A stretch of 64,000 nt of DNA from Candidatus Omnitrophota bacterium (GCA_041650935.1 JBAZKH010000001.1:9243-73242), one strand, 5' to 3'; positions 3,072-41,514 are shown, counted from the stretch's first letter. Numbers and translations are program-made. The notes: generated by a model not told the origin, from the letters alone.

Positions 3072-3103
3072 TATTTCAGGTTCACTCAGCATAAATTTTC
3101 CAC

Positions 3104-5720: not shown

Positions 5721-5816
5721 CAAATTTCAAAATCCAAATCAATCATTTAAAACCAAATATTTTAATGTTGGTCATTTAAAGATTGATTTGTCATTTGGAT
5801 TTTGTCATTTGTCATT
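5716..5816. repeat. imperfect inverted repeat with 24 bp arms (22/24) and 53 bp AT-rich spacer spanning the rmlA-like/rmlB intergenic region
   Basis: Left arm AATGACAAATTTCAAAATCCAAAT (5716-5739) and right arm ATTTGGATTTTGTCATTTGTCATT (5793-5816). The right half also has four GTCATT iterations. Confidence 0.4.
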
Positions 5817-5821
5817 AATAT

Positions 5822-17090: not shown

Positions 17091-18154
17091 GCCATAATCC
17101 GATAAAAAAAACCCGCGGCTTTACCGATAAGATAATCTCGAAGTGTTTTGTGCCGAAATATATCATACTTTTCTTCGCCGTAGTTTTTATAGGCGCGGCC
17201 TGCTATATCTACAACAGTTTTTTCTTCGCCAACCTTTTATACCAGCACTATCCCGGCGTCTCATACTACTATATAGCGAAGAAGGTGACTAAGGGTGAGC
17301 CGGATATAATCAAGAAGTCGCAGATGCTCGTCGATTATATAAATCAGAACGTCTTTACCGGTCCATTCCCCGTTAAGGATCTGCCGCCTATAAGTAATCT
17401 GATAAGAGGCGTCGGCTGGTGCGACCAGGTCTCGCATCTGTTTTTGAGGCTTATCGGGCCCCTGGACGTGCGGGGATATCTTGTCTTCCTGAATAGGTCC
17501 AGGGACGGCACAGGAGCGTCCCCTCATTCCATAGCCGTTATTACTCCCAACACGAAAGAAGCGCTGGGATACGACGATATGATTAAGCAGGGTGTAATCG
17601 TAGATGTTATGCAGGGCGTCATATTCAAAAACGAAAACGGCGGGGATGCGACATTCGGAGATGTATGTGCCAGAAATATCCTCGAATCACAGCGTAAGTA
17701 CTTTACAGGAAATCCCGGTATTCGCTATGATATATATTGTAATAAGGCGGGCATATTCCTGTATAATACGCCGATTTCCATGGCTAGCCAAAAACGGCAA
17801 TTATTTTATAAATATTTCTACTCGCGCCTGCCGGAATGGGCCATACGTCTATACCAGGATATGACGCTCGACAGGTGGTATAGGAGACGGTACCCCAAAG
17901 AGCTCGGTTTTCTCTATTACAAGGCGCGGAATTACCATATTTATGAAAGGTTTGGCGAGGCTATAAAACTTTATGATATAGTTATAGAAAAGACTGCCGA
18001 AAAAGAAGTCGCGGCCAAATGCCTTTTCTTTAAAGGAATGGCCCTTTATAGGATGGGACGAATCGACGCCGCCAGGAAAGAATTCGAAAAGGCCATTAAG
18101 GACTATCCGGATTCGCCATGGTCCAGCCCGGCGGGTGAGTGGCTGCGCAAGTAA
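17087..18154 (+). CDS. membrane-anchored transglutaminase-like cysteine-protease-fold protein with C-terminal TPR repeats
   Basis: TM (YIILFFAVVFIGAACYIY). GVGWCDQVSHLFLRLIGP...RGYLV...HSIAVI matches the transglutaminase-like Cys/His core. C-terminal TPR-like YYKARNY...AIKDYPDS. Confidence 0.4.
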   Translation: MSHNPIKKTRGFTDKIISKCFVPKYIILFFAVVFIGAACYIYNSFFFANLLYQHYPGVSYYYIAKKVTKGEPDIIKKSQMLVDYINQNVFTGPFPVKDLPPISNLIRGVGWCDQVSHLFLRLIGPLDVRGYLVFLNRSRDGTGASPHSIAVITPNTKEALGYDDMIKQGVIVDVMQGVIFKNENGGDATFGDVCARNILESQRKYFTGNPGIRYDIYCNKAGIFLYNTPISMASQKRQLFYKYFYSRLPEWAIRLYQDMTLDRWYRRRYPKELGFLYYKARNYHIYERFGEAIKLYDIVIEKTAEKEVAAKCLFFKGMALYRMGRIDAARKEFEKAIKDYPDSPWSSPAGEWLRK

Positions 18155-18159
18155 TTTTC

Positions 18160-18188
18160 TTGACAATAGGTTAATACGATAGTATCAT
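18160..18188 (+). promoter_or_regulatory. sigma70-like promoter candidate (TTGACA-N17-TATCAT) upstream of the FAD oxidoreductase gene
   Basis: Consensus -35 TTGACA at 18160-18165, 17 bp spacer, TATCAT at 18183-18188, in the 118 bp intergenic gap. Confidence 0.4.
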
Positions 18189-18213
18189 CGTTTAAAACGT
18201 TTTAAACGATGAT
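18184..18213. promoter_or_regulatory. perfect 30 bp palindrome ATCATCGTTTAAAACGTTTTAAACGATGAT (candidate operator)
   Basis: Exact reverse-complement symmetry verified base by base; extendable to 32 bp (18183-18214). Overlaps the putative -10 and the expected transcription start. Confidence 0.55.
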
Positions 18214-18272
18214 AAAATATGTCAAAATCATATCAAACCAGCCTCAATTGCTAAAAAAAGTGCCAGTCTATT

Positions 18273-19406
18273 GTGTATAAAGCCGATGTTTTAATTATAG
18301 GAGCCGGTGTTGTAGGATTGGCCGTTGCCGAAGAGCTTAGCAAATCTTCGAAGAATGTAGTAGTTGTAGAGAGGAACAAGGGGTTTGGACGGGAGACGAG
18401 TTCGCGTAATAGTGAGGTAATACACGGCGGTATATACTATCCTCCCGGCAGTCTCAAGGCGAGGATGTGTGTCCGGGGCAGGGAGCTCTTATATAAGTTT
18501 TGCATAGAGAATAAGATACCGCATAAGAAGACCGGCAAACTCGTAGTTGCCACAGACAAAGAAGATGTTGCGGCCCTGGAAGAGCTCTTCTCGAATGCTG
18601 TTAAGAATGGAGTGCCGGGATTACGGATTCTCGACGGGAAAGAAGCCGGGAAGATGGAGCCGGAGATCTCCGGGACAGCGGCTCTCTATTCTCCGGAGAC
18701 CGGGATAGTCGATTCGCATGCCCTTATGCAGAGGTTAAACGACAGGGCAAAAGATAACGGCGCCATGATAGCGCTCGATTCCGAGGTCATAGCTATCGAT
18801 GGCCGCGGCTATGATGTAACCGTAGAAGACGCGGATGGAACCGGTAAAATCTCCGCCGGACTTGTGATAAACTGCGCCGGCCTGGATTCGGATACCGTGG
18901 CCGCAATGGCAGGGATAGATATAAAGGAGCGTGGATATGAGCTTCATTATTGCAAGGGGCAGTATTTCCGTGTTAATCAAAAGAAGGCCGCGCGCATAAA
19001 GAGGCTGGTATATCCGGTTCCCGAGCCTAAAGCTGTCGGCCTGGGAATACATGCAACGCCGGATCTCGGGGGAGGGCTTCGCTTGGGGCCCGATCATGAA
19101 TATCTGAAGATCCGCGAAAAGGATTATTCGGTAGACGAGTCGCGGCGCGGAGATTTTTTCGAATCCGCCGTAAGATATATGCCTTTTCTCGAAGAGGAAG
19201 ATATCTATCCTGATACCGCCGGGATAAGGCCCAAACTGCAGGCCCGCGGCGGAGATTTTCGTGATTTTGTGATCGAAGAAGGATCTAAACTGGGATTACC
19301 GGGGTTCATCAATTTAATAGGCATAGAATCGCCCGGACTGACCGCCTCTCTTGCGATAGCTGAATACGTAAGCGGTCTTATCGGGCGCTCACAATCCAAT
19401 GGCTAA
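18273..19406 (+). CDS. FAD-dependent oxidoreductase (L-2-hydroxyglutarate oxidase/glycerol-3-phosphate dehydrogenase-like DAO family)
   Basis: GTG start. DVLIIGAGVVGLAVAEEL dinucleotide-binding motif, 377 aa. Confidence 0.65.
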   Translation: MYKADVLIIGAGVVGLAVAEELSKSSKNVVVVERNKGFGRETSSRNSEVIHGGIYYPPGSLKARMCVRGRELLYKFCIENKIPHKKTGKLVVATDKEDVAALEELFSNAVKNGVPGLRILDGKEAGKMEPEISGTAALYSPETGIVDSHALMQRLNDRAKDNGAMIALDSEVIAIDGRGYDVTVEDADGTGKISAGLVINCAGLDSDTVAAMAGIDIKERGYELHYCKGQYFRVNQKKAARIKRLVYPVPEPKAVGLGIHATPDLGGGLRLGPDHEYLKIREKDYSVDESRRGDFFESAVRYMPFLEEEDIYPDTAGIRPKLQARGGDFRDFVIEEGSKLGLPGFINLIGIESPGLTASLAIAEYVSGLIGRSQSNG

Positions 19407-20934
19407 AGAGAAAAATATAATCCTGATCTATCCCAAGACGGGCATGGACTTCGGCTCGACGGTAGCGCCGCCGCATGCGCTTCTTACGATAGCCGCGCCT
19501 CTACACAGGCAGGGGTACAGGATAGAGATTATCGACCAGAGGGTCGATAAGAATTGGCAGGAGAGGATAACATCGGCTCTCGGGCCGGAGACTATCTGCG
19601 TGGGTATTTCGTGCATGACCGGTACGCAGATATATTTTGCGGTAGAGATCGCAAAGGCCGTAAGAAGGTCCGGTTACGGAAAGGTGCCGATCGTGTGGGG
19701 CGGGCCGCATCCGTCGATATTGCCGGCCCAGACGCTTGCAAAAGAGTATGTGGATATAGTGTGCGTCGGCGAAGGGGACGTTACTTTCCCCGGCCTCGTA
19801 AAGGCGCTGGAGACCGGCTCGCCATTAAGCGGAATAAACGGCATAGCATTTAAAGACGGAGGCAAGGTTATCGTCAATTCCCCGGCGCCATTACTCGATA
19901 TGGAAGATCTGCTGCCTGTGCCGTGGGAACTTATAGACGTGGAAAGATATATTCACCCCGACATGTATCTCAAGAGATCGCGGGTCCTCGACATCGGCCA
20001 GACGAGCAGGGGCTGTCCTTTTAACTGCGGTTTCTGCTGCAGCGCCAGCCTGCGCATGCGGAAGTGGCGCGCCATGTCCGTCGCAAAGAGCCTGGAGAGG
20101 ATCATAGGGCCGGTCAGGAAATTCAACCTGGACGGGGTCTGGATCAGGGATGACGAATTTTATATAGATAGGGATAGAGCGAACAAGATCTGCGCGGAGA
20201 TAGTAAGGGAGGATCTGAATATCCGGTGGTACACTTCGGGGACGAGGGTCGATGTATTCAACAAAGCGTCGGGCGAGCAGACCGCCCTATTAAAGAAGAG
20301 CGGCGCGTATGTATTGAAGTTCGGCGCGGAATCGGGGAATAACAGGATATTGAAACTGGTTAATAAGGGGATAACGGTCGAAGAGACGATCCGCACGAAC
20401 CTCAAAGCCAGGACGCATGATATCATCCCTGCTTTTGCCCTTATGATAGGTTTCCCGACGGAGACATTCGACGAGGTAAACAATACTATCGACCTCATCT
20501 TCCGCCTGAAGAAAGATAATCCAAAAGCGCAGTTCGAAACAATGGCCATATATACGGCGCTGCCCGGTACTCCCATGTACGAGCTGGCGCTCGGCCACGG
20601 CCTTAAGCCGCCGCAGGACCTGGAGGAATGGAGCGACTGGAATTTCGATGAATACGATTTCCCCGGTAAGAGGATACCGTGGTTTAACGCAAGGGAGCGG
20701 GAGCGCCTGGGAAACATCTCATATATGAGCGTCCTTGCCAACGCCCTGCCGAACGCGATAGACAGCATAGAAAATTTATTCCTGAGAAGTTTATTGAAGA
20801 TACTCTACAGGCCCGTGAGCGCCTATTACAGGTTCAGGTTGAGACACAAGATGTACAGTTTTTCCCTGGACCTTGCGGCCGTGAGATACTTAAGAAAGAA
20901 GATATTTTACAGGAGCCATATCGTAGTAAAGTGA
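19399..20934 (+). CDS. cobalamin-binding (class B) radical SAM enzyme #2
   Basis: B12-binding N-domain, SRGCPFNCGFCCS. 511 aa. Confidence 0.75.
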   Translation: MAKEKNIILIYPKTGMDFGSTVAPPHALLTIAAPLHRQGYRIEIIDQRVDKNWQERITSALGPETICVGISCMTGTQIYFAVEIAKAVRRSGYGKVPIVWGGPHPSILPAQTLAKEYVDIVCVGEGDVTFPGLVKALETGSPLSGINGIAFKDGGKVIVNSPAPLLDMEDLLPVPWELIDVERYIHPDMYLKRSRVLDIGQTSRGCPFNCGFCCSASLRMRKWRAMSVAKSLERIIGPVRKFNLDGVWIRDDEFYIDRDRANKICAEIVREDLNIRWYTSGTRVDVFNKASGEQTALLKKSGAYVLKFGAESGNNRILKLVNKGITVEETIRTNLKARTHDIIPAFALMIGFPTETFDEVNNTIDLIFRLKKDNPKAQFETMAIYTALPGTPMYELALGHGLKPPQDLEEWSDWNFDEYDFPGKRIPWFNARERERLGNISYMSVLANALPNAIDSIENLFLRSLLKILYRPVSAYYRFRLRHKMYSFSLDLAAVRYLRKKIFYRSHIVVK

Positions 20935-20950
20935 AAGGGTTTTTAGCTTT

Positions 20951-21907
20951 ATGGATAAGATGCCGCTTGTCTCCGTTATAACGCCCTTCTATAACGACAT
21001 AAAGTATTTTCCGGAGACTCTCAGTTCCTATTTTGCGCAAAGTTATCCGAATATCGAGATGATAGTCGTAGACGATAATTCCGACCTGCGTCCCGACCCT
21101 ATCGTTCCCGCCCAAATGAAACATCCGGTCAGGATAATCCGTTCGCAGCGGAAACTGGGCCCCGGCGGCGCGCGCAACCTTGGTATCCGGCAGGCGCTGG
21201 GAGAGTTTATCGCTTTTCTGGATTCGGACGATATCTGGAAACCGGATTTTGTCCGGAAATGCGTCGATGTTTTTTTGAAGCACGACGCCGCCGAATGGGT
21301 CTACACGGACGGGTATTATATAATAGACGGCAAGCCCGTTACGAAGCCCAACTCCGCCTACTTTGGATTTAAGAACGGTCTGCCGAAGGGGTTCGAGCCG
21401 AACGAATATCACCTGAAGGGCTATGCCTTCGAGCTGATGTCGGCCAACGTGGTACGGCGCTCCGCCGTCGAACGGGCGGGGTTTTTCACCGAGGGTCTGG
21501 CCATATCCGAGGACTGGGATTTCTTCTGCCGGGTAGGAGCCGGAGGCAACGTTTATGCCGTCGATGAGCCGCTCATCTATTACCGTAAAAGATCGGATGG
21601 GTTCCATTATACGAGGCTCGAAAATTACGCCGCGGTCCATTCCGCTATACTGAAGAAGGTATATGAAAGCCAGGGCCTGCTTCCCGGGAGGCAGGAGGAT
21701 CTCGGCCGGGCCATAGCATTAAGTTACGAACGCGTCGGGATCCAATATCTGAATAAGGGTCTCCCCGCGCAGGCGCGTTACTATCTGACGCATGAAGCCG
21801 CGCGCCCGATAAGTTCGAGTTTCAGGATGACGGTGCTTAAGTGCCTGAGCTTTATGCCGCCCGTTTTCTATAAGGCCGCGATTAAGTTGTACGAATTGAT
21901 CATCTAA
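20951..21907 (+). CDS. family-2 glycosyltransferase
   Basis: VSVITPFYND...VVDDNSD...FLDSDD GT2 motifs. 318 aa. Confidence 0.75.
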   Translation: MDKMPLVSVITPFYNDIKYFPETLSSYFAQSYPNIEMIVVDDNSDLRPDPIVPAQMKHPVRIIRSQRKLGPGGARNLGIRQALGEFIAFLDSDDIWKPDFVRKCVDVFLKHDAAEWVYTDGYYIIDGKPVTKPNSAYFGFKNGLPKGFEPNEYHLKGYAFELMSANVVRRSAVERAGFFTEGLAISEDWDFFCRVGAGGNVYAVDEPLIYYRKRSDGFHYTRLENYAAVHSAILKKVYESQGLLPGRQEDLGRAIALSYERVGIQYLNKGLPAQARYYLTHEAARPISSSFRMTVLKCLSFMPPVFYKAAIKLYELII

Positions 21908-21919
21908 GAAGAGGAAGAG

Positions 21920-23020
21920 ATGCAGGAAGCCAAGTTTGCCTGTGGTGAGATAGCGAAATATTTTAAGCCGGCGGGTCTGGACAGCCTGGTCCATTTCGTG
22001 ACCTATAAGTGTAATGCCAGATGCGCGCACTGTTTCTTCTCGAAGCAGCTCAACAAAGAAGGCGAGCTCTCCAGGGACGAAATTTTCCGCATGATCGGGA
22101 AACTCGGGAAACTGAAAGGGCTCCTCATCTCCGGCGGAGAGCCGTTTTTGCGGGACGACCTTGCCGGGATCGTGGCCGAATATGCGCTCAGGTGCGGCGT
22201 TGCCGTAGCATCGATTCCCACAAACGGATTTAATACGGACCGGATTATCGGCGCCTGTGAAACCATCTTAGGAAAGTGTAAGAACCTGAACCTGACCGTG
22301 GCTGTCTCCATCGACGCTCTCCACGATGATCATGACAGGCGGCGCGGTTTCCCGGGCGGGTTTGCCAGGGCCGCAGAGACCGCCCGGACTCTTGTCGAGT
22401 TGAAAAAGGCTTATCCGCGTTTGCGCGTGCATATCGTTACGGTTATAATGCCCGACAATGCAAAGACCGTCAGGGCCGTCTCCGGGTTTGTCCGGGACCG
22501 GATCGACCCCGATTATCACTGGTTTGAGCCTATGCGCCGGTTGTCCGGGAAGAGTCTTCCCCTGGAAGGTATCGCGCCGGATGAGTTGAGGAGATTTTTA
22601 AACGAGAATATCATATACTATTTTAAGAAGATCAAAGGCAGTTCGCAGAATATATATTCGAGCCGCAGGCTGAATAACGCCATAATAAATTTTGCGCTCA
22701 ACAACCTTAATATTGCGCTCGACAATTTCTTAGACGGCAAGAGATGGCCGGTCAAATGTGTCGCTGGCAGGAGGATAGCGGTCCTTTACCCGGACGGCGC
22801 CGTCTCGGCCTGCGAACTGCGTGAGCCGGTAGCGACGGTGCGCGATTTCGGTTATGATCTGCGGAGGTTGTTAAAGGACTATAAGTTTAAGGATGAAGTC
22901 AGGGATATATCGAAGGGGAACTGCAGCTGCTTCCACGGCTGTTTCATACCTCCTTCCGTCAGGTTCGATCCGCTCCAGATGGGCCGGCTGGCGTTTAAGA
23001 CGCTTTTCACCAAATACTAA
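21920..23020 (+). CDS. radical SAM enzyme with C-terminal SPASM/twitch-like Cys-rich domain
   Basis: FVTYKCNARCAHCF CxxxCxxC, GGEP motif, C-terminal ..GNCSCFHGCF Cys cluster. 366 aa. Confidence 0.6.
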   Translation: MQEAKFACGEIAKYFKPAGLDSLVHFVTYKCNARCAHCFFSKQLNKEGELSRDEIFRMIGKLGKLKGLLISGGEPFLRDDLAGIVAEYALRCGVAVASIPTNGFNTDRIIGACETILGKCKNLNLTVAVSIDALHDDHDRRRGFPGGFARAAETARTLVELKKAYPRLRVHIVTVIMPDNAKTVRAVSGFVRDRIDPDYHWFEPMRRLSGKSLPLEGIAPDELRRFLNENIIYYFKKIKGSSQNIYSSRRLNNAIINFALNNLNIALDNFLDGKRWPVKCVAGRRIAVLYPDGAVSACELREPVATVRDFGYDLRRLLKDYKFKDEVRDISKGNCSCFHGCFIPPSVRFDPLQMGRLAFKTLFTKY

Positions 23021-23042
23021 AAAGGAGCCAGGAGACGCCAAG

Positions 23043-23747
23043 ATGAAGACGACCTTAATATTACCTACTTTGAATGAATTGGGCGGCATGAAAGAGATCA
23101 TGCCCAAGATAAAGAAGGAATGGTTCGACCAGATAATAGTGGTAGACGGCGGGTCGACGGACGGAACGATAGAATATGCCAGAGATAACGGCTACTCCAT
23201 CTACATCCAGAAAGGGAAGGGTTTAAGGCAGGGTCTGCGGGAGATGTGGGGAATGGTCGAAGGGGATATCGTGGTCACTTTCTCTCCCGACGGCAATTCG
23301 ATCCCGGAACTCATCCCGCCGCTTATAGAGAAGATGAAAGGCGGATACGACATGGTGATCGTCTCGCGGTATGCCAAGGGCGCGAGAAGTTACGACGACG
23401 ATTGGCTGACCCGTTTCGGCAACTGGATGTTTACGACGATGATAAACGTCCTTTTCAGGGCGCGTTACGACGACGCCCTTGTAATCTTCCGCGCATATAA
23501 GACAGATCTCATAGACAGGCTGGATATAAATAATGAGGCAAAGTTCCTGACGGCCGCCGAAAGGGCGGGGATACTCATAGGATGGGAACCCCAGCTCTCT
23601 ATCCGCTGTGCCAAGCGGAAACTTAAAGTGGCCGAGATACCGGGCGACGAACCGGCAAGGATATACGGCAAGAGGAAGATGAGACCGTTCCAGTCGGGAT
23701 CGGTCATGCTTGCGCAGATACTTTATGAGATTTTCGTCTGGCGTTAA
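23043..23747 (+). CDS. family-2 glycosyltransferase (DPM1-like)
   Basis: TLILPTLNE...VVDGGSTDGT... from ATG 23043. The track ORF starts at 22893, but its first 50 aa overlap the radical SAM gene and look non-coding. Confidence 0.7.
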   Translation: MKTTLILPTLNELGGMKEIMPKIKKEWFDQIIVVDGGSTDGTIEYARDNGYSIYIQKGKGLRQGLREMWGMVEGDIVVTFSPDGNSIPELIPPLIEKMKGGYDMVIVSRYAKGARSYDDDWLTRFGNWMFTTMINVLFRARYDDALVIFRAYKTDLIDRLDINNEAKFLTAAERAGILIGWEPQLSIRCAKRKLKVAEIPGDEPARIYGKRKMRPFQSGSVMLAQILYEIFVWR

Positions 23748-23761
23748 ATTTTAACGAAAAT

Positions 23762-24733
23762 ATGAAGATGAATAAAGCACAACTTACGGCGCTTTATGAG
23801 ACGATGCTTAAGATCAGGCTCGTCGAGCTGAAGATAGAAGAGCTCTATCCTCAGGACGAGATGCGGACACCCGTCCATCTCTGCATAGGCCAGGAGGCGG
23901 CGCCGGCCGGAGTTTGCGCGAATCTGGAAAAGGACGATTACGTCTTCAGCAACCATCGCGGGCACGGACACTATATCGCCATGGGCGGCGATCTGAGGTC
24001 CATGATCGCCGAATTATACTGCAAAGAGACCGGCTGTTCCAAAGGCCGGGGCGGCTCGATGCATCTTATAGATACCGCCGCCGGGTTCATCGGCAGTTCT
24101 TCGATCGTGGCCGGCAGTATACCTATTGCGACGGGCGCGGCTCTCGCTTCGGTATTACGCAATAGGCGCGGAAGAGTATCCGTAGTCTTCTTCGGCGATG
24201 CGGCCTCCGAGGAGGGCGTCCTCTTCGAGAGCATGAACTTTGCCGCGCTGAAGCGCCTGCCCGTCGTCTATGTGTGCGAGAATAATTTCTATTCGGTCTT
24301 TTCTCATCAAAGCGCAAGGCAGGCCAACTGCGACATCTTCAAAAGGCCGAGAGCGTTCGACATACCTTCATATCTCGCAGACGGGACCGACGCGGCCGAT
24401 GTCTACCTGAAATCACGGAAGGCCGTTTGCGATGCCCGTTCAGGCAGGGGCCCGTCGTTTCTGGAGTGCAGGGCATACCGCTGGAGGGGCCATGCCGGCC
24501 CCGGCGATCCCCTCAAAGACTCTTACAGAAAACCGGGCGAATGGGATGAATGGATCGTGAAGGACCCGGTTAAAAAATTTGAAGGCGTTCTTAAAAAGAA
24601 GAAGGTTATTACGGGTAAAAGTATAGAAAAGCTTCGGGCAAAGATCGAGAGGGAGATCATGGAGGCATTCGAATTTGCCATACGGTCTCCTCTGCCTGCG
24701 CGGAGCGCAGTTGCGGAATATCTGGTGGGTTAG
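23762..24733 (+). CDS. thiamine-diphosphate-dependent dehydrogenase E1 component, alpha subunit (PdhA/AcoA-like)
   Basis: HLCIGQEA...NHRGHGH..GGDL...GGSMH...GIPIATGAA...VVFFGDAASEEG...YVCENN motifs. 323 aa. Confidence 0.75.
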   Translation: MKMNKAQLTALYETMLKIRLVELKIEELYPQDEMRTPVHLCIGQEAAPAGVCANLEKDDYVFSNHRGHGHYIAMGGDLRSMIAELYCKETGCSKGRGGSMHLIDTAAGFIGSSSIVAGSIPIATGAALASVLRNRRGRVSVVFFGDAASEEGVLFESMNFAALKRLPVVYVCENNFYSVFSHQSARQANCDIFKRPRAFDIPSYLADGTDAADVYLKSRKAVCDARSGRGPSFLECRAYRWRGHAGPGDPLKDSYRKPGEWDEWIVKDPVKKFEGVLKKKKVITGKSIEKLRAKIEREIMEAFEFAIRSPLPARSAVAEYLVG

Positions 24734-24737
24734 ATAT

Positions 24738-25781
24738 ATGCCCTGGACAAAAATTTTAATAGAGAAAAAAGCGCCGGACTTCGATGAAGATGCGGGTAAG
24801 GATTTAAGGAAACTTACCGTACCTGAAGCGATACAGGAGACGCTTTCCCAGGCGCTTGCCGTAGATAAGCGGGTCTTTGTGATGGGTCAGGGCGTTGACG
24901 ATCCCTCAGGGATGTTCGGCATGACGCTTGGCCTCCAGGAGAGATACGGCAGACAGAGGGTTTTTGACACGCCTCTATCCGAAAATGCCCTTACCGGCGT
25001 AGCGATAGGCGCGGCGCTTACGGGCATGAGGCCCGTGTACTTTCATAACAGGCCCGACTTTCTTTTACTGGCAATGGACCAGATCGTGAACCACGCCGCG
25101 AAGTATAGTTATATGTTCGGGGGCAAAGTGCGGATCCCGATGGTAATTGCCGCCGTGATAGGCAGGGGATGGGGCTCCGCCGCCCAGCATTCCCAGTCCC
25201 TGCACGGGCTCTTTATGCACGTCCCGGGACTGCGCCTTGTCATGCCGAGCACCGCATACGACGCAAAGGGGCTGTTGGCTGCCGCGATTGCCGACGGTAA
25301 TCCCGTCATATTCATAGAACATCGCTGGCTCTTTAAGCACAAAAGCCATGTCCCGAAAGAGCTATATACTATCCCGTTCGGCAAAGGGCTGGTGCGGCGT
25401 CAGGGCAGGGATGTGACGATCGTGGGAATTTCCTGTATGGTTATAGAGGCCCTGCGCGCGGCGGAGGAACTGGCGCGCGCAGGCTGCAGCGCCGAGGTGA
25501 TCGATCCCAGGACATTGAGGCCGCTCGATGAAGAGGTCATCCTGAAGTCCGTCAGAAAGACAGGGCGTTTATTGATTGCCGATACCGACTGGCGGACTTG
25601 CGGCGCAGCCTCCGAGATCGCTTCGATAGCGGCGCAAAAAGGATTGAAATACCTTAAAGCGCCTGTGAAGATAGTTGCCTGGCCGGACCTGCCGGTCCCG
25701 GCCAGTTATGTCCTAGAGGAGGCTTTTTATCCGGGTAAGGACGATATCGTAAAAACGGTGAAGGAGTTATTGAAAAGATGA
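24738..25781 (+). CDS. thiamine-diphosphate-dependent dehydrogenase E1 component, beta subunit (transketolase-like)
   Basis: KLTVPEAIQETL...VFVMGQGV...FDTPLSENALTGVAIGAAL. ATG 24738, 4 nt after the alpha stop. Confidence 0.75.
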   Translation: MPWTKILIEKKAPDFDEDAGKDLRKLTVPEAIQETLSQALAVDKRVFVMGQGVDDPSGMFGMTLGLQERYGRQRVFDTPLSENALTGVAIGAALTGMRPVYFHNRPDFLLLAMDQIVNHAAKYSYMFGGKVRIPMVIAAVIGRGWGSAAQHSQSLHGLFMHVPGLRLVMPSTAYDAKGLLAAAIADGNPVIFIEHRWLFKHKSHVPKELYTIPFGKGLVRRQGRDVTIVGISCMVIEALRAAEELARAGCSAEVIDPRTLRPLDEEVILKSVRKTGRLLIADTDWRTCGAASEIASIAAQKGLKYLKAPVKIVAWPDLPVPASYVLEEAFYPGKDDIVKTVKELLKR

Positions 25782-26731
25782 AGAAGACGATTAAACGGAT
25801 GAAGATACTGGTTACCGGAGGAGCGGGCTATATAGGATCTGTGCTGGTGCCCGCGCTATTGAAAGAAGGATTTGAGGTTACCGTGATCGATAACTTCATA
25901 TATAATCAGGCCCCGCTGCTGGACTGTTGTCATGACGACAAGCTGACCATAGTCCGCGCGGACGCCAGGGATAAGAGTATAGTTTCCAGATACCTGAAAG
26001 GGGCCGATGCGATATTCCCGCTGGCCTGTCTTACAGGCGCGCCTCTTTGCCAGCAGAATCCTCTCGAGGCCAGGAGCGTAATCGTAGATGCTTTAAAGAT
26101 GATACTGAGCCTGCGCAGCAAAAAGCAGGCCATCATCTATCCGACTACCAACAGCGGCTATGGAATAGGCCAGAAAGGGATCTTCTGCACAGAGCGGACG
26201 CCGTTACGGCCGGTCTCTCTCTACGGAAGACTAAAAGTTGAGGCGGAGAAGGCACTGCTCGACTCAGGTGATTGTATCACATTGAGGCTCGCCACGGCCT
26301 TCGGTATAAGCCCTCGGATGAGGCTCGATCTCCTGGTCAACGATTTCACCTACCGCGCCGTAAACGACCGGTTCATCGTCCTGTTTGAGGCGCACGCGAA
26401 GAGAAATTATATACACGTCCGGGATGTGGCGAAGGCGTTTATACATTGTCTGAATAATTTTCCGTTCCTTAAGGGCGAGCCGTATAACGTAGGCCTTAGT
26501 GACGCCAATTTGAGCAAGCGGGAACTGTGCGCGGAAATAAAAAAACAGGTGCCGGACTTCTATTTTACCGAGGCGCGGATCGGTCATGATCCGGACAAGA
26601 GGGATTATATCGTCAGTAACGAAAAGATAGAACGGACCGGGTACAGACCCGACTATTCCATCCGGAAGGGTATATCGGAATTGATAAAGGGTTACCAGGT
26701 CGTCAGAAGAAACCAGTTCTCAAACGTATGA
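25778..26731 (+). CDS. NAD-dependent epimerase/dehydratase (SDR) acting on a nucleotide sugar
   Basis: ILVTGGAGYIGSVL, YGRLKVEAE (YxxxK). 317 aa. ATGA overlap upstream. Confidence 0.7.
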   Translation: MKKTIKRMKILVTGGAGYIGSVLVPALLKEGFEVTVIDNFIYNQAPLLDCCHDDKLTIVRADARDKSIVSRYLKGADAIFPLACLTGAPLCQQNPLEARSVIVDALKMILSLRSKKQAIIYPTTNSGYGIGQKGIFCTERTPLRPVSLYGRLKVEAEKALLDSGDCITLRLATAFGISPRMRLDLLVNDFTYRAVNDRFIVLFEAHAKRNYIHVRDVAKAFIHCLNNFPFLKGEPYNVGLSDANLSKRELCAEIKKQVPDFYFTEARIGHDPDKRDYIVSNEKIERTGYRPDYSIRKGISELIKGYQVVRRNQFSNV

Positions 26732-26740
26732 GGTGAAAAG

Positions 26741-27748
26741 ATGATAATATCGAGGACGCCTTTCCGCATCTCTTTTTTCGGCGGAGGGACCGATTATCCT
26801 GCGTGGTACAGGGAGAAGAACGGCGCTGTGCTGGCCACCACCATAAATAAGTACTGCTATATCTCCTGCCGTTATCTTCCTCCTTTCTTTGCCCATAAAT
26901 CGCGGATCATCTACTCGAAGATGGAACAGGTCAGGCGGGTATCCGAGATACAGCATCCTTCCGTCCGGGCCTGTCTTACCCTGATGAGGATAAGGGACGG
27001 CGTGGAGATACACCACGACGGAGATTTGCCTGCAAGGACGGGACTCGGGTCGAGTTCTACGTTCACCGTAGGACTGCTTAACTCCCTGGCCGGGCTGAAG
27101 GGCAACATAATATCGAAGATGGATCTGGCCAAGAAAGCTATCCACGTAGAGCAGGATATGCTGAAGGAGAACGTAGGGTCGCAGGACCAGATATCCGCCG
27201 CTTACGGCGGTTTTAACCTGATAGAATTCAGCGGCGACCACAAATTCAAGATACACCCGGTGACTATCAACCATAAAAGGCTCAACCTATTGCAGGACCA
27301 TCTTCTTCTCTTCTTTACGGGGATTTCCCGCTATGCCTCGGAGATAGCCAGGGAGCAGATAAAGAGGATACCGGACAATAAGAGCGAGCTGGGCGAGATC
27401 TTCGACATGGTCCATGAAGCGGTCGACATAGTCAAAGGCAATGCCGGGTTGTCGCGGTTCGGGAGGCTCTTGAACGAGAGCTGGCAGATCAAGAAGAGGT
27501 TATCGAAACTCATAACGACGCCGGAGATAGACGATATATATTACTCTGCCATAAAAGCCGGGGCGATAGGCGGCAAACTCCTCGGAGCCGGAGGGGGAGG
27601 GTTCATTCTCTTCTTTGCCGAACCCGGAGCGCATCCGCGGATCAGGGAGCGGTTAAAGCATCTTCTTAATGTCCCGTTCAAATTCGAAAATTTCGGCAGC
27701 CAGATAATATTCTACGATCCTACCGGTTCGCTCGAGAGGGGCAAATGA
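26741..27748 (+). CDS. hddA: GHMP kinase, D-glycero-alpha-D-manno-heptose 7-phosphate kinase (HddA-like)
   Basis: MIISRTPFRISFFGGGTD, GLGSSSTF (GHMP motif), GAGGGGF. 335 aa. Confidence 0.7.
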   Translation: MIISRTPFRISFFGGGTDYPAWYREKNGAVLATTINKYCYISCRYLPPFFAHKSRIIYSKMEQVRRVSEIQHPSVRACLTLMRIRDGVEIHHDGDLPARTGLGSSSTFTVGLLNSLAGLKGNIISKMDLAKKAIHVEQDMLKENVGSQDQISAAYGGFNLIEFSGDHKFKIHPVTINHKRLNLLQDHLLLFFTGISRYASEIAREQIKRIPDNKSELGEIFDMVHEAVDIVKGNAGLSRFGRLLNESWQIKKRLSKLITTPEIDDIYYSAIKAGAIGGKLLGAGGGGFILFFAEPGAHPRIRERLKHLLNVPFKFENFGSQIIFYDPTGSLERGK

Positions 27749-28467
27749 ACGGATTCAGCCTATCGAAGATAGACGTCCTTATTTTATGCGGCGGTAAAGG
27801 GGAGCGGCTCAAGGGCCTTGCCGGCGAAAAACCCAAGCCGATGGCCGATATCAGCGGCAGGCCGTTCCTCGATATTCTGATAACACACCTGGCGGGTTTC
27901 GGGTTTCGCAGGTTTATCTTATGCGCCGGTTATAAAGGCGAGGTTATCAGGGATTATTATTCGCAAAAACCGCAGGGCAATTCCGAAATTTTAACGATAA
28001 TAGAGAAGCCGCCGCTAGGGACCGCCGGTGCGATAAAGAACGCGGAGCCGGTTATCGGGACCAACCCTTTCCTGGTTTCGAACGGAGACTCGTTCTGCAA
28101 GCTCGATTACTTTGAATTTGTTAAAGACCATTTCGCAAGAGGCTCTTCATATTCTATGGTCGTAGCCAAGTCGTCGGGTAACCGGGACTGCGGCCTGGTT
28201 AAGCTGAACGATGCCGGCAGGATAACGGGATTTAGCGAGAAAAAGGAGAGCGCGGGCGACGGGTATGTGAATGCCGGCATCTATCTGCTGGATAAGAAGA
28301 TATTTGCCCTTATAAAACGCGGCAAGAAGACGTCGCTGGAACACGACATCTTTCCTGGATTAGCCGGTAAGGATTTTTACGGTTACCCGGTAAATAACGT
28401 TCTTACGGATATAGGGACGCCCGAAAGATATTTGCGGGCCCGGAAACTTTTTGACGATGCAGGCTAA
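27745..28467 (+). CDS. hddC: D-glycero-alpha-D-manno-heptose 1-phosphate guanylyltransferase-like nucleotidyltransferase (HddC-like)
   Basis: VLILCGGKGERLKGL nucleotidyltransferase motif, 240 aa, directly downstream of hddA-like. Confidence 0.6.
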   Translation: MNGFSLSKIDVLILCGGKGERLKGLAGEKPKPMADISGRPFLDILITHLAGFGFRRFILCAGYKGEVIRDYYSQKPQGNSEILTIIEKPPLGTAGAIKNAEPVIGTNPFLVSNGDSFCKLDYFEFVKDHFARGSSYSMVVAKSSGNRDCGLVKLNDAGRITGFSEKKESAGDGYVNAGIYLLDKKIFALIKRGKKTSLEHDIFPGLAGKDFYGYPVNNVLTDIGTPERYLRARKLFDDAG

Positions 28468-29902
28468 ACCGCTAGACCTTCTTATAATAAAACCCGGAAG
28501 CCAGAAGATACTATACGGCGACCTGAGCAGGACTTTATCCGCCCTCGAGCCGCCGCTCTGGGCGGCGCTCCTTGCGGCATTCGTAAGAGACGCAGGTTTT
28601 AGCGTAAAGATTATCGATATGGAGATAGGGCCGGATAGTCTTTTGCCTATCCTGCGGGAAGAGAGTCCGCGTCTTGCGGCTATTGCGGTCTCCGGCACAA
28701 ATCCTTCCGCTTCTACAATGAACATGATAGGAGCCCGGGCGGTCCTGGGAAGTATCAGGCGGTCGAATGCGTCTATCGCGACTATCCTGATGGGTCTGCA
28801 CCCATCCGCTCTGCCGGAGAGGACTCTTAAAGAAGAGCCTGTGGATATGGTCTGCCAGGGCGAAGGTTTTCATACGCTTACGGATATTTTAAGCGGCCGG
28901 GCGAATAAAGGAATAAAAGGGTTGTGGTATAGGGACGGTGACCGTATAAAAAGTAGTCCTATGGCAGAGCTGGCCGACCCGGACAAACTTCCGTCTCCGG
29001 CCTTCGATCTTCTGCCCATGCCAAGCTACAGGGCGCATAATTGGCACAGCTGGACCAATAAGTCGGAGCGTCAGCCGTATGGAGTTATCTATACGAGCCT
29101 GGGATGCCCGTATAACTGCTCTTTCTGCTGTATCAATGCTCTATTCGGCGTCCATAAGATACGGCAGAGGTCTCCGGACCTGGTCATAGAGGATATCGCC
29201 TGCCTCGTCGATAATTACGGGGTCAAAAATATAAAGATAATAGACGAGATGTTCGCTTTCAAGGAAGCGCATGTCGATAAATTGTGCGATCTGATCGTCG
29301 AGCGCGGGTATGACCTGAACATATGGGCCTATGCGAGGGTCGATACGCTTACCAAAGGCATGGTCGGTAAGATGAAGAGCTCCGGCATAAACTGGCTCGC
29401 CCTGGGCTTCGAATCGGGGAGCAAAAAGGTAAGGGACGGTGTTACAAAGGGCAGGTTCGGAAATAAAGAGGTACTCGCCTCCGTCAGGATGATACGGGAT
29501 GCCGGCATCGGTATAATCGGCAACTTCATCTTCGGCCTGCCTAACGACGATATAGATACGATGAACGAGACGCTCGAGATGGCAAAAGAGCTTAATTGCG
29601 AGTATACGAATTTCTACGTCTGTATGGCCTATCCCGGCTCGCGGCTTTACGGCGAGACCGACCCGGCATATCTGCCGGAGTCATGGGAAGGTTATTCGCA
29701 GTTCGGTTACGAGACAAAACCTCTCCCGACGAAATGCCTGCGCCCTGAAGAGGTGCTGGCTTTCAGGGACCGGGCTTTCATAGATTTTTATGGCAGCCGG
29801 CGGTATCAGGATATGATGGCCGCGCGGTTCGGGACGAAGGTGCAGGGCGAGATAAAAAACATGCTTGAATATAAACTGGCCAGGAGACTATTAAGTGTCT
29901 AA
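28457..29902 (+). CDS. cobalamin-binding (class B) radical SAM enzyme #3
   Basis: B12-binding N-domain, SLGCPYNCSFCCI. ATG 28457, with an in-frame TTG at 28451. Confidence 0.75.
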   Translation: MQAKPLDLLIIKPGSQKILYGDLSRTLSALEPPLWAALLAAFVRDAGFSVKIIDMEIGPDSLLPILREESPRLAAIAVSGTNPSASTMNMIGARAVLGSIRRSNASIATILMGLHPSALPERTLKEEPVDMVCQGEGFHTLTDILSGRANKGIKGLWYRDGDRIKSSPMAELADPDKLPSPAFDLLPMPSYRAHNWHSWTNKSERQPYGVIYTSLGCPYNCSFCCINALFGVHKIRQRSPDLVIEDIACLVDNYGVKNIKIIDEMFAFKEAHVDKLCDLIVERGYDLNIWAYARVDTLTKGMVGKMKSSGINWLALGFESGSKKVRDGVTKGRFGNKEVLASVRMIRDAGIGIIGNFIFGLPNDDIDTMNETLEMAKELNCEYTNFYVCMAYPGSRLYGETDPAYLPESWEGYSQFGYETKPLPTKCLRPEEVLAFRDRAFIDFYGSRRYQDMMAARFGTKVQGEIKNMLEYKLARRLLSV

Positions 29903-31130
29903 AAAAAAGCGGAAAGATAATGCGGTGCAGGTTACGTTCGGAACGGTATCTATAGACAATAGATCCAAGCGGCTCGTAAGGGATATACTCGATTCTAACC
30001 GGGTTTCGAGCGGCAGCCATGTCCGCGAGTTCGAAAGAAGGTTCGCCGCGCTTATCGGCGCCAGAGCGGCTGTAGCGCTTAGTTCCGGGACGGATGCCGA
30101 TGCGCTCGCGTTGGCGGTATTGTACGATTTCGGCGCGCGCCGCGGCGACGATATCATAGTCCCGGCGCTATCTTTTGTCGCGACGGGAAATGCCGTCCTG
30201 CAGGCAGGTTTCAACCCCGTCTTCGTCGACGTGGACAGGGGAACGCTCAATATCGACCCCTTGAAGATAGAGTCTGCCATAACGCGGAAGACTAGAGCGA
30301 TAATGCCTGTCCATCTCATGGGCAAGCCGGCGCCGATGGATGAGATAAAAAGGATCGCGCGGCGGCATAAGCTATTCGTCATAGAAGATGCCGCCGAGGC
30401 GCATGGCGCTAAATATAAAGGAAAGAATATCGGTACGCTGGGCGACATGGGGGCATTCAGCCTTTACGTGGCCCACATAATAACGACGATAGAGGGCGGT
30501 GTGGTGGTTACGGACAGGCCTGAGTTTGCGGAGATACTGAGGTCGCTCAGGTCGCACGGCAGGGCCTGTAAGTGCGAAAGGTGCGTCCTGAATATCTCTT
30601 CCGGGTATTGCCCGAAGAGATTCAGCGGAGAGAATAAGGACGACATAAGGTTCGTCTTCGAGAGGATAGGATTTTCGTGCAAGATGAACGAACTGGAGGC
30701 GGCTGTAGGGCTCGGCAATATAGGCAAATACGCAAAGATAGTCGAGGCAAGGAGGCGGAACCTTAAATATCTGATGAAAAAGTTCCGCCGGTTCAGCCCT
30801 TATCTTGCGACGATCAGCGAGGAGCGTTACGAGCGTATCGGCCCTCACGCCTTTCCCGTAATAATACAGGCGGCGGCCGGATTTACAAGGAACGAGATAG
30901 TCGATTACCTCGAAAAAAACGGCGTCGAAACCCGCACGCTATTTTCATCGATGCCGACACAGTGTGCCGGTTTCAAGTACCTGGGATACAAAGAAGGCGA
31001 TTTCCCGAATGCCGAATATATCGGCAATAACGGTTTTCACATTGGTGTGCACCAGGGCCTGAAGCGCTGTCACCTGGATCATTTCCTCGGGCTCGTCGCT
31101 GAATTTTTGGATAGATGCGATAGACGGTAA
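29895..31130 (+). CDS. DegT-fold PLP/PMP-dependent sugar 3-dehydratase-like enzyme (ColD/E1 RfbH-like; His replaces the Schiff-base Lys)
   Basis: GTG start. FSLYVAHIITTIEGG aligns with the aminotransferase FS..aiK.ittgEGG block with H in place of K, as in ColD and CDP-6-deoxy-L-threo-D-glycero-4-hexulose 3-dehydrase. Extra CKCERC...C cysteine cluster. Confidence 0.55.
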   Translation: MSKKKRKDNAVQVTFGTVSIDNRSKRLVRDILDSNRVSSGSHVREFERRFAALIGARAAVALSSGTDADALALAVLYDFGARRGDDIIVPALSFVATGNAVLQAGFNPVFVDVDRGTLNIDPLKIESAITRKTRAIMPVHLMGKPAPMDEIKRIARRHKLFVIEDAAEAHGAKYKGKNIGTLGDMGAFSLYVAHIITTIEGGVVVTDRPEFAEILRSLRSHGRACKCERCVLNISSGYCPKRFSGENKDDIRFVFERIGFSCKMNELEAAVGLGNIGKYAKIVEARRRNLKYLMKKFRRFSPYLATISEERYERIGPHAFPVIIQAAAGFTRNEIVDYLEKNGVETRTLFSSMPTQCAGFKYLGYKEGDFPNAEYIGNNGFHIGVHQGLKRCHLDHFLGLVAEFLDRCDRR

Positions 31131-31134
31131 AATT

Positions 31135-32058
31135 ATGAAAAGAGACTCGAAGATATTGATAATCGGCTGGAAGAGTCCGGTGGGGCAAAGACTCGCGGAA
31201 CGCCTTAAGGCCGATGATTTTAAGCGGATAATTACTATGCCGGAGGGAGGCTTGTCAAGACAGTCTGCCGTCGAGAGATTCTTTAAGAGTAAGAGGCCTC
31301 GCTACGTCTTCTTCATGGATGTCAGGTCGGGAGGGATCGCCGCCAATTCGGCTTATCCGGCGGAATTTATCTATGATAATCTTAGCGCGGAATTGAATGT
31401 GATCCACGCCTCATATAAAACGGGGGTAAAGAGGCTGCTCTTTATGGCCAGCTCCTGCTCATATCCGAAAGCCTGTCTTCAGCCGATGAGAGAAGAGTAT
31501 ATTTTGAGCGGGCCGCTTGAACCTACGAGCGCGGCCTTCGCTATAGCGAAGATAGCGGGGATGAAGATGTGCCAGTATTACAACCGCCAATATGGCACTA
31601 GTTTTGTATGCGTGATCCCGGCTACAGCGTACGGTCCGGGCGATGATTTCGACATCGGAACCTCTCATGTGATCCCGGCGCTTATCCATAAGATACATAG
31701 CGCTAAGACGGGCGGCCGGAGCAGTGTTACCATATGGGGTACGGGATCTCCGCGGCGTGAATTTATCCATGCCGATGACCTGGCTGACGCCGCCATAAAG
31801 ATAATGCTGGATAAGAAAGCCCCGCCGGTTATAAATATAGGTACGGGTCACGACGTTTCTATAAAAGAACTGGCGCTGCTCCTTAAAGATATAACAGGAT
31901 TCAGGGGCAAGCTTAAATTCGACCGCGCAAAACCCGACGGTGCTTACCGTAAACTGCTCGATATATCCAAATTGAAATCTACAGGCTGGATGCCTAGAGT
32001 AGACCTTAGGACAGGCCTTGAAGATCTCTATAAGTGGTACCTGAAGCATGCGGCATAA
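31135..32058 (+). CDS. GDP-L-fucose synthase-like 3,5-epimerase/4-reductase (Fcl/ColC family)
   Basis: About 307 aa SDR with the Fcl-like order (KILIIG..., YAIAKIAG YxxxK, WGTGSPRREF). Confidence 0.6.
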   Translation: MKRDSKILIIGWKSPVGQRLAERLKADDFKRIITMPEGGLSRQSAVERFFKSKRPRYVFFMDVRSGGIAANSAYPAEFIYDNLSAELNVIHASYKTGVKRLLFMASSCSYPKACLQPMREEYILSGPLEPTSAAFAIAKIAGMKMCQYYNRQYGTSFVCVIPATAYGPGDDFDIGTSHVIPALIHKIHSAKTGGRSSVTIWGTGSPRREFIHADDLADAAIKIMLDKKAPPVINIGTGHDVSIKELALLLKDITGFRGKLKFDRAKPDGAYRKLLDISKLKSTGWMPRVDLRTGLEDLYKWYLKHAA

Positions 32059-34207: not shown

Positions 34208-34223
34208 TGGGCTGGAGTGTAAA

Positions 34224-34247
34224 ATCGTTTAAAACGTTTTAAACAAT
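34224..34247. promoter_or_regulatory. second copy (23/24) of the operator core ATCGTTTAAAACGTTTTAAAC(A/G)AT upstream of the MarR/GbsR-like regulator
   Basis: ATCGTTTAAAACGTTTTAAACAAT matches 18187-18210 except one base. Lies 16 nt upstream of the regulator's start codon. Confidence 0.45.
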
Positions 34248-34263
34248 ACTAAAGCGAGGTAAT

Positions 34264-34758
34264 ATGCATACTAAACTGGAGATGGCTCAGGATAAGTTCA
34301 TAGAGAGTATAGGTGAGCTGGCTGGAAGCATCGGCATCAATAACTTCATCGCACAGCTATATGCGGTGCTCTATCTCAGCGATAAGCCCCTTTCGCTCGA
34401 TGAGATAGTCGAACGCCTTAAGGCAAGTAAGGGGAATATAAGCTTGAATATAAGGGAATTGGAGAAATGGGGCGCGGTAAAGAAAGTGTGGGTTAAGGGC
34501 TCCCGCAAGGATTATTACGAGGCTGAACCGGACGTCAAAAAGGTGGCTGTGAATAAGCTGAAGAACGGTGTCGAGAAGAGGATGGCCCAGGTATCTAATA
34601 TGATAGAAGAGTTTAAGGGGCTTGTCCACTCGGCCGAAAACGATATGACCGAAGAAGATAAGAAGATAGTGAAGGCATACGACCAGAAACTTAAGAAGAT
34701 AGAAGAGATGAAGTCGCTCGTGTCCAAGGCGCTCGGCATTGCCGAGAAATTCTTTTAA
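34264..34758 (+). CDS. winged-helix transcriptional regulator (MarR/GbsR-like)
   Basis: 164 aa. LSLDEIVERLKASKGNISLNIRELEKWG HTH-like segment. gaggt RBS. Preceded by the palindromic motif shared with 18184-18213. Confidence 0.5.
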   Translation: MHTKLEMAQDKFIESIGELAGSIGINNFIAQLYAVLYLSDKPLSLDEIVERLKASKGNISLNIRELEKWGAVKKVWVKGSRKDYYEAEPDVKKVAVNKLKNGVEKRMAQVSNMIEEFKGLVHSAENDMTEEDKKIVKAYDQKLKKIEEMKSLVSKALGIAEKFF

Positions 34759-34769
34759 CGAAAGGCGCG

Positions 34770-35465
34770 ATGAAGAGTTTAGATAAGTGCGGCATAATAA
34801 TCCAGGCGCGCATGTCGTCAAAAAGGTTCTCCGGGAAGATGATGGCCAGGTTATCCGCGGACCCGCTGGTAAAATATGTATACGCCCGGTGCAGGAGATC
34901 CGGGGCCGGCAAGGTCCTGGTGGCTACATCCACGGAGGGTTCCGACGACGTTCTGTATAACTATTGCAAAGCGGAGCGGATACCGGCGATGCGGGGGGAT
35001 ATCGACAACGTCGTAAAAAGATATGCCGACGCCGCCCGCGCGGCAGGCATCGAATATATCTGCAGGGTATGCGGAGATACGCCGTTCGTCGATACGGCGC
35101 TCATAGACGCTCTATTCGATACGCTTATTTCCGGAAAACTCGATTACGCCGCGCCCGACAGGCAGACATGCGCCCCGGGATTCTATTGCGAGACATTTAC
35201 ACTTAAAGCGCTAACGAAGGTTCTCGAGTCGGCTAAATCACCGGATGACCTGGAGCATGTTACGAAGTATATCCTGGATAACAGGGATAAATTTGCGGTG
35301 AAACTTGTGGACGCGGGCCTGAACCCGGACTTCGCAAGGAAGACGAGATTCACGATAGACTACCCGGAAGATATCGAGACCGGAAGAAAGATAGCGGCGA
35401 GGCTTTCGGCCGATTATTCCTTTACTTCACGCGATGTCCTCGAAGCGGTCCGGGAGATCGGGTAA
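34770..35465 (+). CDS. cytidylyltransferase (acylneuraminate/NeuA-PseF-SpsF family)
   Basis: GIIIQARMSSKRFSGK N-terminal CTP-transferase motif. 231 aa. Confidence 0.6.
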   Translation: MKSLDKCGIIIQARMSSKRFSGKMMARLSADPLVKYVYARCRRSGAGKVLVATSTEGSDDVLYNYCKAERIPAMRGDIDNVVKRYADAARAAGIEYICRVCGDTPFVDTALIDALFDTLISGKLDYAAPDRQTCAPGFYCETFTLKALTKVLESAKSPDDLEHVTKYILDNRDKFAVKLVDAGLNPDFARKTRFTIDYPEDIETGRKIAARLSADYSFTSRDVLEAVREIG

Positions 35466-35472
35466 ATTTTAG

Positions 35473-37326: not shown

Positions 37327-37328
37327 TA

Positions 37329-38027: not shown

Positions 38028-38029
38028 CC

Positions 38030-41510: not shown

Positions 41511-41514
41511 AAAT

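Follow-up and report, generated by a model that had tools for sequence, protein, structure and literature searches.

In the present study, two near-identical palindromic sites were found on two near-consensus promoters in a stretch of 64,000 nucleotides from a Candidatus Omnitrophota bacterium (hereafter the window), and the second of these sites stands before a gene encoding a winged-helix protein. From sequence comparison, we consider it very probable that the two sites are operators, herein O1 and O2, of the product of this gene at 34264, a dimeric repressor of the GbsR/Mj223 type that would autoregulate and would also co-control two sugar-tailoring operons. Our confidence comes mainly from the convergence of a protein-first and a DNA-first search, which set out from different molecules.

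First, the sites themselves are exceptional in the window. The sequence TATCATCGTTTAAAACGTTTTAAACGATGATA at 18183-18214 (no strand assigned, palindrome search) is a perfect palindrome of 32 bp, which extends the exact 30-bp palindrome at 18184-18213 described in the initial annotation. Among the palindromes of the window with 17-nt arms, this one alone is 100% complementary, whereas the rest reach at most 92%, and approximately 1.5e-5 palindromes of this kind would be expected per 64 kb by arithmetic assuming uniform base composition. The 24-bp core, ATCGTTTAAAACGTTTTAAACGAT (18187-18210), is the putative operator O1. The putative operator O2, ATCGTTTAAAACGTTTTAAACAAT (34224-34247), agrees with O1 at 23 of 24 positions, and its 3' edge is 16 nt upstream of the regulator ATG at 34264, exactly as the same annotation had placed it. 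A 24-bp weight matrix (31-bit), trained on the operators of homologous loci, scored O1 at 37.8 bits and O2 at 36.3 bits; no other position in the window exceeded 8 bits, and the runner-up, at 12098, reached 7.2 bits. In the source genome, the operator scan covered the 64-kb window and the 6.8 kb upstream of its start (71 kb), and no operator was present in these 6.8 kb. When up to three mismatches were allowed, the O1 24-mer was matched twice in the window and not once in 100 shuffles. Orthologous promoters in dozens of genomes have kept the sites, and neither a transposase nor a repeat family is associated with them, so that a chance similarity or the inverted-repeat remnant of a mobile element is close to negligible as an explanation. 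A weaker half-site had also been proposed at 5743-5754. This candidate was rejected as background, because it is outside the top six weight-matrix scores (the sixth being 1.6 bits) and it is one of eight one-mismatch 10-mers outside O1 and O2, compared with about 4.9 expected. The gap in that region (5721-5821, before gene 5822) contains four copies of GTCATTT (…GGTCATTTAAAG…TTGTCATTTGGATTTTGTCATTTGTCATT…), which bear no relation to the palindrome and might constitute a separate regulatory site.

Second, both sites occupy the same position on a promoter. On the plus strand, P1 is TTGACA-atagGTTAATACGATAG-TATCAT at 18160-18188, with a 17-nt spacer, the -35 hexamer at 18160-18165 and the -10 hexamer at 18183-18188. 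P2 is TTGACA-N17-TAAAAT at 34197-34225 on the same strand, with the -35 hexamer at 34197-34202, on the last codons of the upstream gene (stop at 34205-34207), and the -10 hexamer at 34220-34225. Each matches 11 of 12 positions of the E. coli-type sigma-70 consensus used for scoring, the promoters of Omnitrophota themselves not being characterised. In the consensus scan from 17 to 36 kb, the two highest-ranking hits are P1 and P2, and on the plus strand of the whole 64 kb, they are the only sites that combine a perfect TTGACA with 11/12 overall. The palindrome does overlap the TATCAT hexamer of a TTGACA-N17 promoter, as the initial annotation had it, and the register is identical at P1 and P2, with the palindrome core beginning at the final AT of the -10 hexamer. 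Considering the usual spacing of approximately 7 nt, transcription from P1 would start near 18195, in the left half-site, and transcription from P2 probably starts near 34232. The two 17-nt spacers have no mutual sequence similarity, which points to selection on the individual elements and not to a recent block duplication.

P1 is located in a gap of 118 nt (18155-18272), which is the largest in the first 34 kb; the earlier description of this gap as the only sizeable one does not hold, since gaps of 88, 80 and 101 nt are present at 3072, 4456 and 5721. The GTG start of the FAD-oxidoreductase gene at 18273 agrees with the start in homologues, no Shine-Dalgarno sequence is visible, and a leader of about 78 nt is predicted from P1. 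Between 18215 and 18272, the leader contains an ORF of 11 codons (ATG at 18220 to TAA at 18255, MSKSYQTSLNC). On the minus strand, a mirror promoter-like sequence, TTGATA-N16-TATCAT (10/12), is present at 18209-18236; this sequence shares O1 and is directed antisense toward the TPR gene, with no plausible gene behind it, and arises because the palindrome reaches into the P1 -10 hexamer.

A palindrome in a transcribed region might also work as an RNA hairpin, serving as a terminator, an attenuator or a processing site for read-through transcripts, and the O1 region does fold as a 14-bp hairpin (-15.1 kcal/mol, z = -4.9). However, the O2 region folds no better than shuffles (z = -0.41), and the O1 stem is A/U-rich, followed by AAAATATG with no U-tract, and absent from the terminator scan. 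A search of Rfam 15 gave no match at E <=1 in 17500-35500. In addition, when 64 distinct sites were compared, variable pairs were mismatched without compensation in either orientation (columns 9/16, AC and GA; columns 12/13, CA), and a transcript from the predicted start would hold the right arm only. A hairpin, terminator or riboswitch was thus rejected on the O1-only folding, the U-tract and Rfam results and the mismatches, and an RNA role of the palindrome is, in our judgment, very improbable.

Third, the gene that follows O2 encodes a protein of a family to which repressors belong. The gene (34264-34758, plus strand) encodes 164 aa and is preceded by the Shine-Dalgarno sequence GAGG at 34256-34259 on the same strand, where homologues keep GGA at the same place. 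Its description as a MarR/GbsR-like winged-helix gene was confirmed using profile, phmmer and Foldseek searches. Mj223 (PDB 1ku9) was matched over residues 5-159, at 6e-25 with the single sequence in phmmer and at 1.2e-27 with a profile, and the NCBIfam CudC model was matched over residues 3-147 at 6e-22, with 78.3 bits against a cut-off of 218. In Pfam, the regulator gave sub-threshold winged-helix matches only, among them MarR_2 (PF12802) at 24.7 bits, below the 27-bit gathering threshold; PF12802 is precomputed on several close homologues at JGI, where the homologues are labelled 'GbsR (MarR family)'. The AF2 model (pLDDT 88.4) comprises helices H1-H4, a beta-wing at 72-87 and helices at 91-123 and 130-163, that is, a winged helix-turn-helix head and two long C-terminal helices. 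The best Foldseek match to this model was again 1ku9 (TM 0.59/0.63, 38% identity), followed by uncharacterised regulator structures and then by MarR-family structures, including the MepR-DNA and ST1710-DNA complexes. An identical protein is encoded on a 710-kb contig annotated as Candidatus Omnitrophota, hundreds of 164-aa homologues at 60-82% identity were observed, and a profile search returned 1170 50%-identity clusters at E <=1e-10. Taken from sequence and model, the regulator is assigned to the GbsR/Mj223 type (COG1510) in the MarR superfamily.

Within this type, the regulator is outside the osmoprotectant subgroup (GbsR/OpuAR/OpcR/CudC). In the alignment, the aromatic-cage insertion DWYQTFTDLFSIKW of Bacillus/Terribacillus GbsR-type proteins is replaced by PDVKKVAVN-KL, the gene is linked to glycan genes and not to opuA/B/C or gbsAB, and the CudC score is far below the cut-off of that model. 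The regulator is also outside the CydE/CioR subgroup, as no cydAB/cioAB genes are present in the window or in the operator-bearing homologue loci. On distant homologues, NCBIfam returned no named family besides sub-threshold CudC matches. Operator-linked homologues of only 25-45% identity still have the wing and the SK(G/A)(N/S)xS recognition helix.

Fourth, the site and the gene family occur together in other genomes. The protein-first set comprised 70 homologue loci from species-representative genomes, 42 at >=38% identity and 28 more distant. Among the 42, the palindrome was present within 250 nt upstream of the gene itself in 32, immediately behind a -35/-10 promoter, the other ten having no site directly upstream; among the 28 distant loci (Pseudomonadota, Bdellovibrio and Bacillus/Terribacillus GbsR-like proteins and CydE-like branches), none had the palindrome upstream. 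The consensus in the homologue loci is ATCGTTTAGAACGTTCTAAACGAT, with TTTA/TAAA blocks that are invariant in 64/64 distinct sites, and the weight matrix at >=20 bits gave only 38 matches in 995 kb of these loci. When 36 distinct promoters of homologues at >=50% identity were aligned, anchored on the operator, the -35 and -10 hexamers, the operator and the GGA Shine-Dalgarno sequence were conserved and the spacers were variable. The arrangement TTGACA-N17-TAnnnT, with its end 2 nt into the 24-mer, was found exactly in 20 of these promoters.

The DNA-first set was obtained by scanning JGI metagenome contigs for exact matches to CGTTTARAAYRTTYTAAACG, which gave 117 sites. The start of a regulator homologue is within 140 nt of 53 of these sites, with 25-89% identity to the window protein (median 46%), and the 16 distant operator-linked regulators that were extracted (25-46% identical) are on contigs with GC of 0.47-0.71 and keep SK(G/A)(N/S)xS. 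About half of the sites have no regulator homologue nearby, which might indicate that the palindrome is bound by another factor encoded elsewhere, with the winged-helix gene as merely one of the targets. However, many of these matches are repeated samples of few loci, and the motif and the gene family co-occur over 25-89% identity and over GC of 0.47-0.71. Moreover, the motif is gone in the distant GbsR/CydE-like branches (0/28 loci), and conservation of the recognition helix accompanies the motif throughout. Another factor is therefore quite improbable, and the regulator encoded at 34264 remains the favored binding protein of the sites. The initial annotation had proposed an autoregulated repressor with a second target, and this proposal is supported in silico, at the level of sequence, by the 32/42 and 53/117 linkage and by the partnership with the FAD oxidoreductase described below.

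The metagenome set also contained several particular arrangements. In 15 contigs from one low-GC (0.30) species (L085, L086, L092, L093, L098, L111, L117, L128, L149, L153, L157, L166, L168, L175 and L182), a perfect 26-bp palindrome, AACCGTTTAGAAYRTTCTAAACGGTT, with an identical core, is present 52 nt before the gene for an ABC substrate-binding lipoprotein, and no regulator homologue is near it in those contigs; as they represent one locus of one species, the 15 matches were rejected as independent evidence. Two sites are on Omnitrophota-style promoters before other genes, one methyltransferase-like (L170) and one transketolase-N-like (L165). The regulator promoters of L023, L025, L026, L028, L033, L140 and L181 have a third half-site in 9-bp phase (GTTTAGAACATTCTAAACGTTCTAAAC), which may indicate that more than one dimer binds or that alternative registers exist. 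In L158, L103, L163, L174, L121 and L124 (contig GC 0.47-0.66) and in other distant homologues (25-46%), the operator ends 0-6 nt before the regulator ATG, which suggests very short or leaderless mRNAs.

Fifth, the genes behind the two operators form a conserved partnership. The presumed O1-controlled operon (18273-34207, plus strand) comprises 14 genes packed so tightly that their ends overlap or nearly abut, and it has no internal gap >=40 nt. The first seven encode an FAD oxidoreductase, a B12 radical SAM protein, a GT2, a radical SAM protein, a second GT2 and the alpha and beta subunits of a TPP-dependent E1; the remaining seven encode an epimerase, a GHMP kinase, a nucleotidyltransferase, a B12 radical SAM protein, a DegT aminotransferase, an epimerase and a 719-aa protein without a family match. 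The genes presumably co-transcribed with the regulator extend from 34770 to 44651 on the plus strand, the next gap >=40 nt beginning at 44652. They encode a CMP-sugar cytidylyltransferase, an AsnB-like amidotransferase, NeuB, a GT2 and a 111-aa ORF, and then a carbamoyltransferase, a B12 radical SAM protein and a 585-aa protein without a family match. Both groups are part of approximately 60 kb of co-directional glycan genes (3160-63874), which begin right after an LptC/LptD-like gene. This cluster holds at least four B12-binding radical SAM genes (14291, 19399, 28451 and 41515) as well as TPP-dependent E1/transketolase-like pairs, and this gene content suggests heavily C-methylated or branched sugars.

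In relatives, a homologue of the FAD-oxidoreductase gene directly follows the regulator gene in L145, L009 and L191. In L145, where the regulator is 80% and the oxidoreductase 68% identical, homologues of the B12 radical SAM, GT2, radical SAM and GT2 genes come next; in L017, a 704-aa gene separates the regulator from downstream homologues of six O1-operon genes; and in L008 and L116, the gene order is as in the window. The FAD oxidoreductase thus adjoins the regulator in relatives, indicating that the second target is a conserved partner, which in the window has its own promoter and operator copy instead of being co-transcribed with the regulator. A conserved separate operator before FAD-oxidoreductase homologues was rejected, because L189 and L190 share the cassette and have none before the oxidoreductase, and the gene trails the regulator in L145, L009 and L191. 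O1 is therefore lineage-specific.

Glycan genes also account for most of the first genes after the regulator: among 31 operator-bearing loci, the next gene encodes NeuB in 5, a PseB/CapD-like protein in 5, DegT in 3, an FAD oxidoreductase in 3, a UDP-sugar dehydrogenase in 2 and an ABC-2 permease in 2, and distant homologues head Wzx-like, GT4, NeuB and WbpB-like genes. On the Omnitrophota contig ORJL010179075.1 (GCA_900218215.1; L003 and L192), two regulator paralogues, P0009 and P0038, are located approximately 90 kb apart; they are 80% and 73% identical to the window protein, and each has an operator and heads a different glycan module. The gene order of the regulator operon recurs after P0038, the positional orthologue, in L192. 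L003 contains two operators: one, at 9963, precedes the regulator, and the other, at 9544, precedes a phosphopantetheinyl-transferase gene. The site in L109 was considered as a second target in a relative and rejected, since it is the promoter of P0038 itself.

Members of the MarR family bind palindromes or pseudopalindromes of 16-24 bp that overlap their own promoters, and a ligand releases them. Herein, we propose a similar scheme for the window. Each operator would cover roughly positions -8 to +16 of a near-consensus sigma-70-type promoter, and a dimer bound over -10/+1 would keep RNA polymerase off the promoter or prevent open-complex formation or initiation. With O2 on the promoter of the regulator itself, the predicted outcome at P2 is negative autoregulation together with control of the nonulosonic-acid-type genes (cytidylyltransferase, AsnB, NeuB, GT2, carbamoyltransferase and others). 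The same control would extend, at P1, to the 14-gene operon for sugar-nucleotide tailoring. The sites, the promoter register, the family and fold of the protein and its conserved linkage to the operator and to the O1-operon genes are seen in silico; binding, the dimer stoichiometry, the repressive sign, any roadblock and any ligand are what we infer. Release by a ligand is assumed by analogy with the family, and the missing aromatic cage disfavors choline-like inducers. The glycan-tailoring block would in this case be switchable, and a sugar nucleotide might be the ligand, as had been suggested at the outset.

The bound repressor may also roadblock read-through from the upstream module, which is plausible because the cluster is co-directional and no terminator is evident. 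In a stronger version of this idea, the operator mainly insulates, with the bound protein stopping read-through between the modules of the 60-kb cluster and promoter occlusion being secondary; such a role is compatible with the repressor reading. Every gene of the window is on one strand, no terminator-like site is present between the upstream gene and O1 or O2, P2 extends over the 3' end of the gene before it, and GbsR is reported to act in this manner (PMC7396694). However, most homologues hold the operator in a fixed register on a conserved -35/-10 pair, a constraint that promoter occlusion predicts and that would be unnecessary if the operator were purely a roadblock. Insulation as the main function is therefore possible but somewhat unlikely, and occlusion of the promoter by the repressor remains the preferred mechanism.

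The proposed switch shares features with the characterized members of the family and differs from each of them. GbsR of Bacillus subtilis, the choline-responsive regulator of gbsAB and opuB, is of the same family (COG1510, GbsR type within MarR) and is an autoregulated repressor, with an A/T-rich inverted-repeat operator that has a 4-bp spacer and is located downstream of the start site, resulting in a roadblock (PMC7396694). In the window, by contrast, the operators overlap -10/+1; the insertion matching the GbsR inducer pocket, an aromatic cage of six Phe, is absent from the regulator; and the presumed regulon consists of glycan genes instead of osmoprotectant uptake and synthesis. OpcR, also from B. 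subtilis, is a GbsR-type repressor that sterically hinders RNA polymerase at the promoter (PMC7396694), the mode proposed herein, but its operator is on the -35 of opuB/opuC, and both the operator sequence and the regulon are different. CydE/CioR, the repressors of cydAB/cioAB, form a GbsR branch without the aromatic cage and with a non-osmolyte inducer, sulfate in the case of CydE, showing that the GbsR family can use other ligands (PMC6207618). Like the window regulator, CydE/CioR are encoded beside their target operon; however, this target is the cytochrome bd oxidase, and in the fetched loci, no copy of the palindrome accompanies the distant homologues of this type from Pseudomonadota and Bdellovibrio MAGs. 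A survey of the GbsR family described osmoprotectant and cyd groups and heterogeneous archaeal and Bacteroidetes groups of unknown role (PMC6207618). MarR, MepR and ST1710 share the winged-helix fold, and presumably its dimeric form, with the regulator, but the sequence similarity is remote only, and the C-terminal part of the regulator consists of two long helices as in Mj223, unlike the classical MarR-family repressors.

The closest solved relative is Mj223 (MJ0223) of Methanocaldococcus jannaschii (PDB 1KU9). In recognition helix and wing, it is nearly identical to the regulator, and the GbsR aromatic-cage insertion is missing from both (PMC6207618). According to the literature, neither its function nor its operator is known (PMC7396694). 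Mj223 is archaeal, and the operon that its orthologues head differs from the glycan genes observed here: the regulator gene is followed by MMPL/RND-like and CARDB-like genes and, where the fetched locus reaches, by an MFS transporter gene. Upstream of the Mj223 orthologue in five of five Methanococcales genomes, a palindrome, GTTCAAAAA(A)TTTTTGAAC, is present at the operon head in the fetched loci (L193:3919-3945, L194:3949-3976, L195:3911-3937, L196:2196-2222 and L197:2860-2878), and a TATA-like box is just upstream of it in four of the five. The sequence upstream of MJ0223 is GTTCAAAAATTTTTGAAC. From these sequences, we propose GTTCAAAAA(A)TTTTTGAAC as a candidate operator of Mj223; the half-site is similar to the bacterial GTTCTAAAC, and the arrangement is different.

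In the literature searched, coverage of which was incomplete, no description of a glycan-linked GbsR group or of this motif was found; the motif strings returned eukaryotic heat-shock elements and primers only, and nothing relevant was found on glycan regulators of Omnitrophota. A repressor-operator switch is ordinary in kind, since the mechanism is textbook for MarR-type repressors, and as far as the searched literature shows, this switch has not been described before for the regulator group or the pathway. Thus, several findings are new with respect to that literature. First, a GbsR/Mj223-type clade has a defined and deeply conserved 24-bp putative operator. Second, this clade consistently heads operons for surface polysaccharides and nonulosonic acids in Omnitrophota and in other lineages, with regulators down to 25% identity. 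Third, a second putative operator of one regulator would recruit a 16-kb tailoring operon rich in radical SAM genes. These results also provide a lead on the DNA target of Mj223-like proteins, which is unknown according to the literature.

Finally, we hypothesize, as a speculative and on balance unlikely extension, that the regulator, promoter and operator constitute a portable "module-head" cassette belonging to giant surface-glycan islands with co-directional genes, both in Omnitrophota and in several other largely uncultured lineages, in which one DNA specificity (GTTTAGAAC/GTTCTAAAC) represses and insulates each module. If this hypothesis is true, a single signal, perhaps a pathway intermediate, could switch whole blocks of surface sugars, and the modules could be rewired simply through the gain or loss of a 24-bp site, as with O1 here. 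The Mj223 branch, structurally solved and functionally orphan, would then gain an operator that can be tested.
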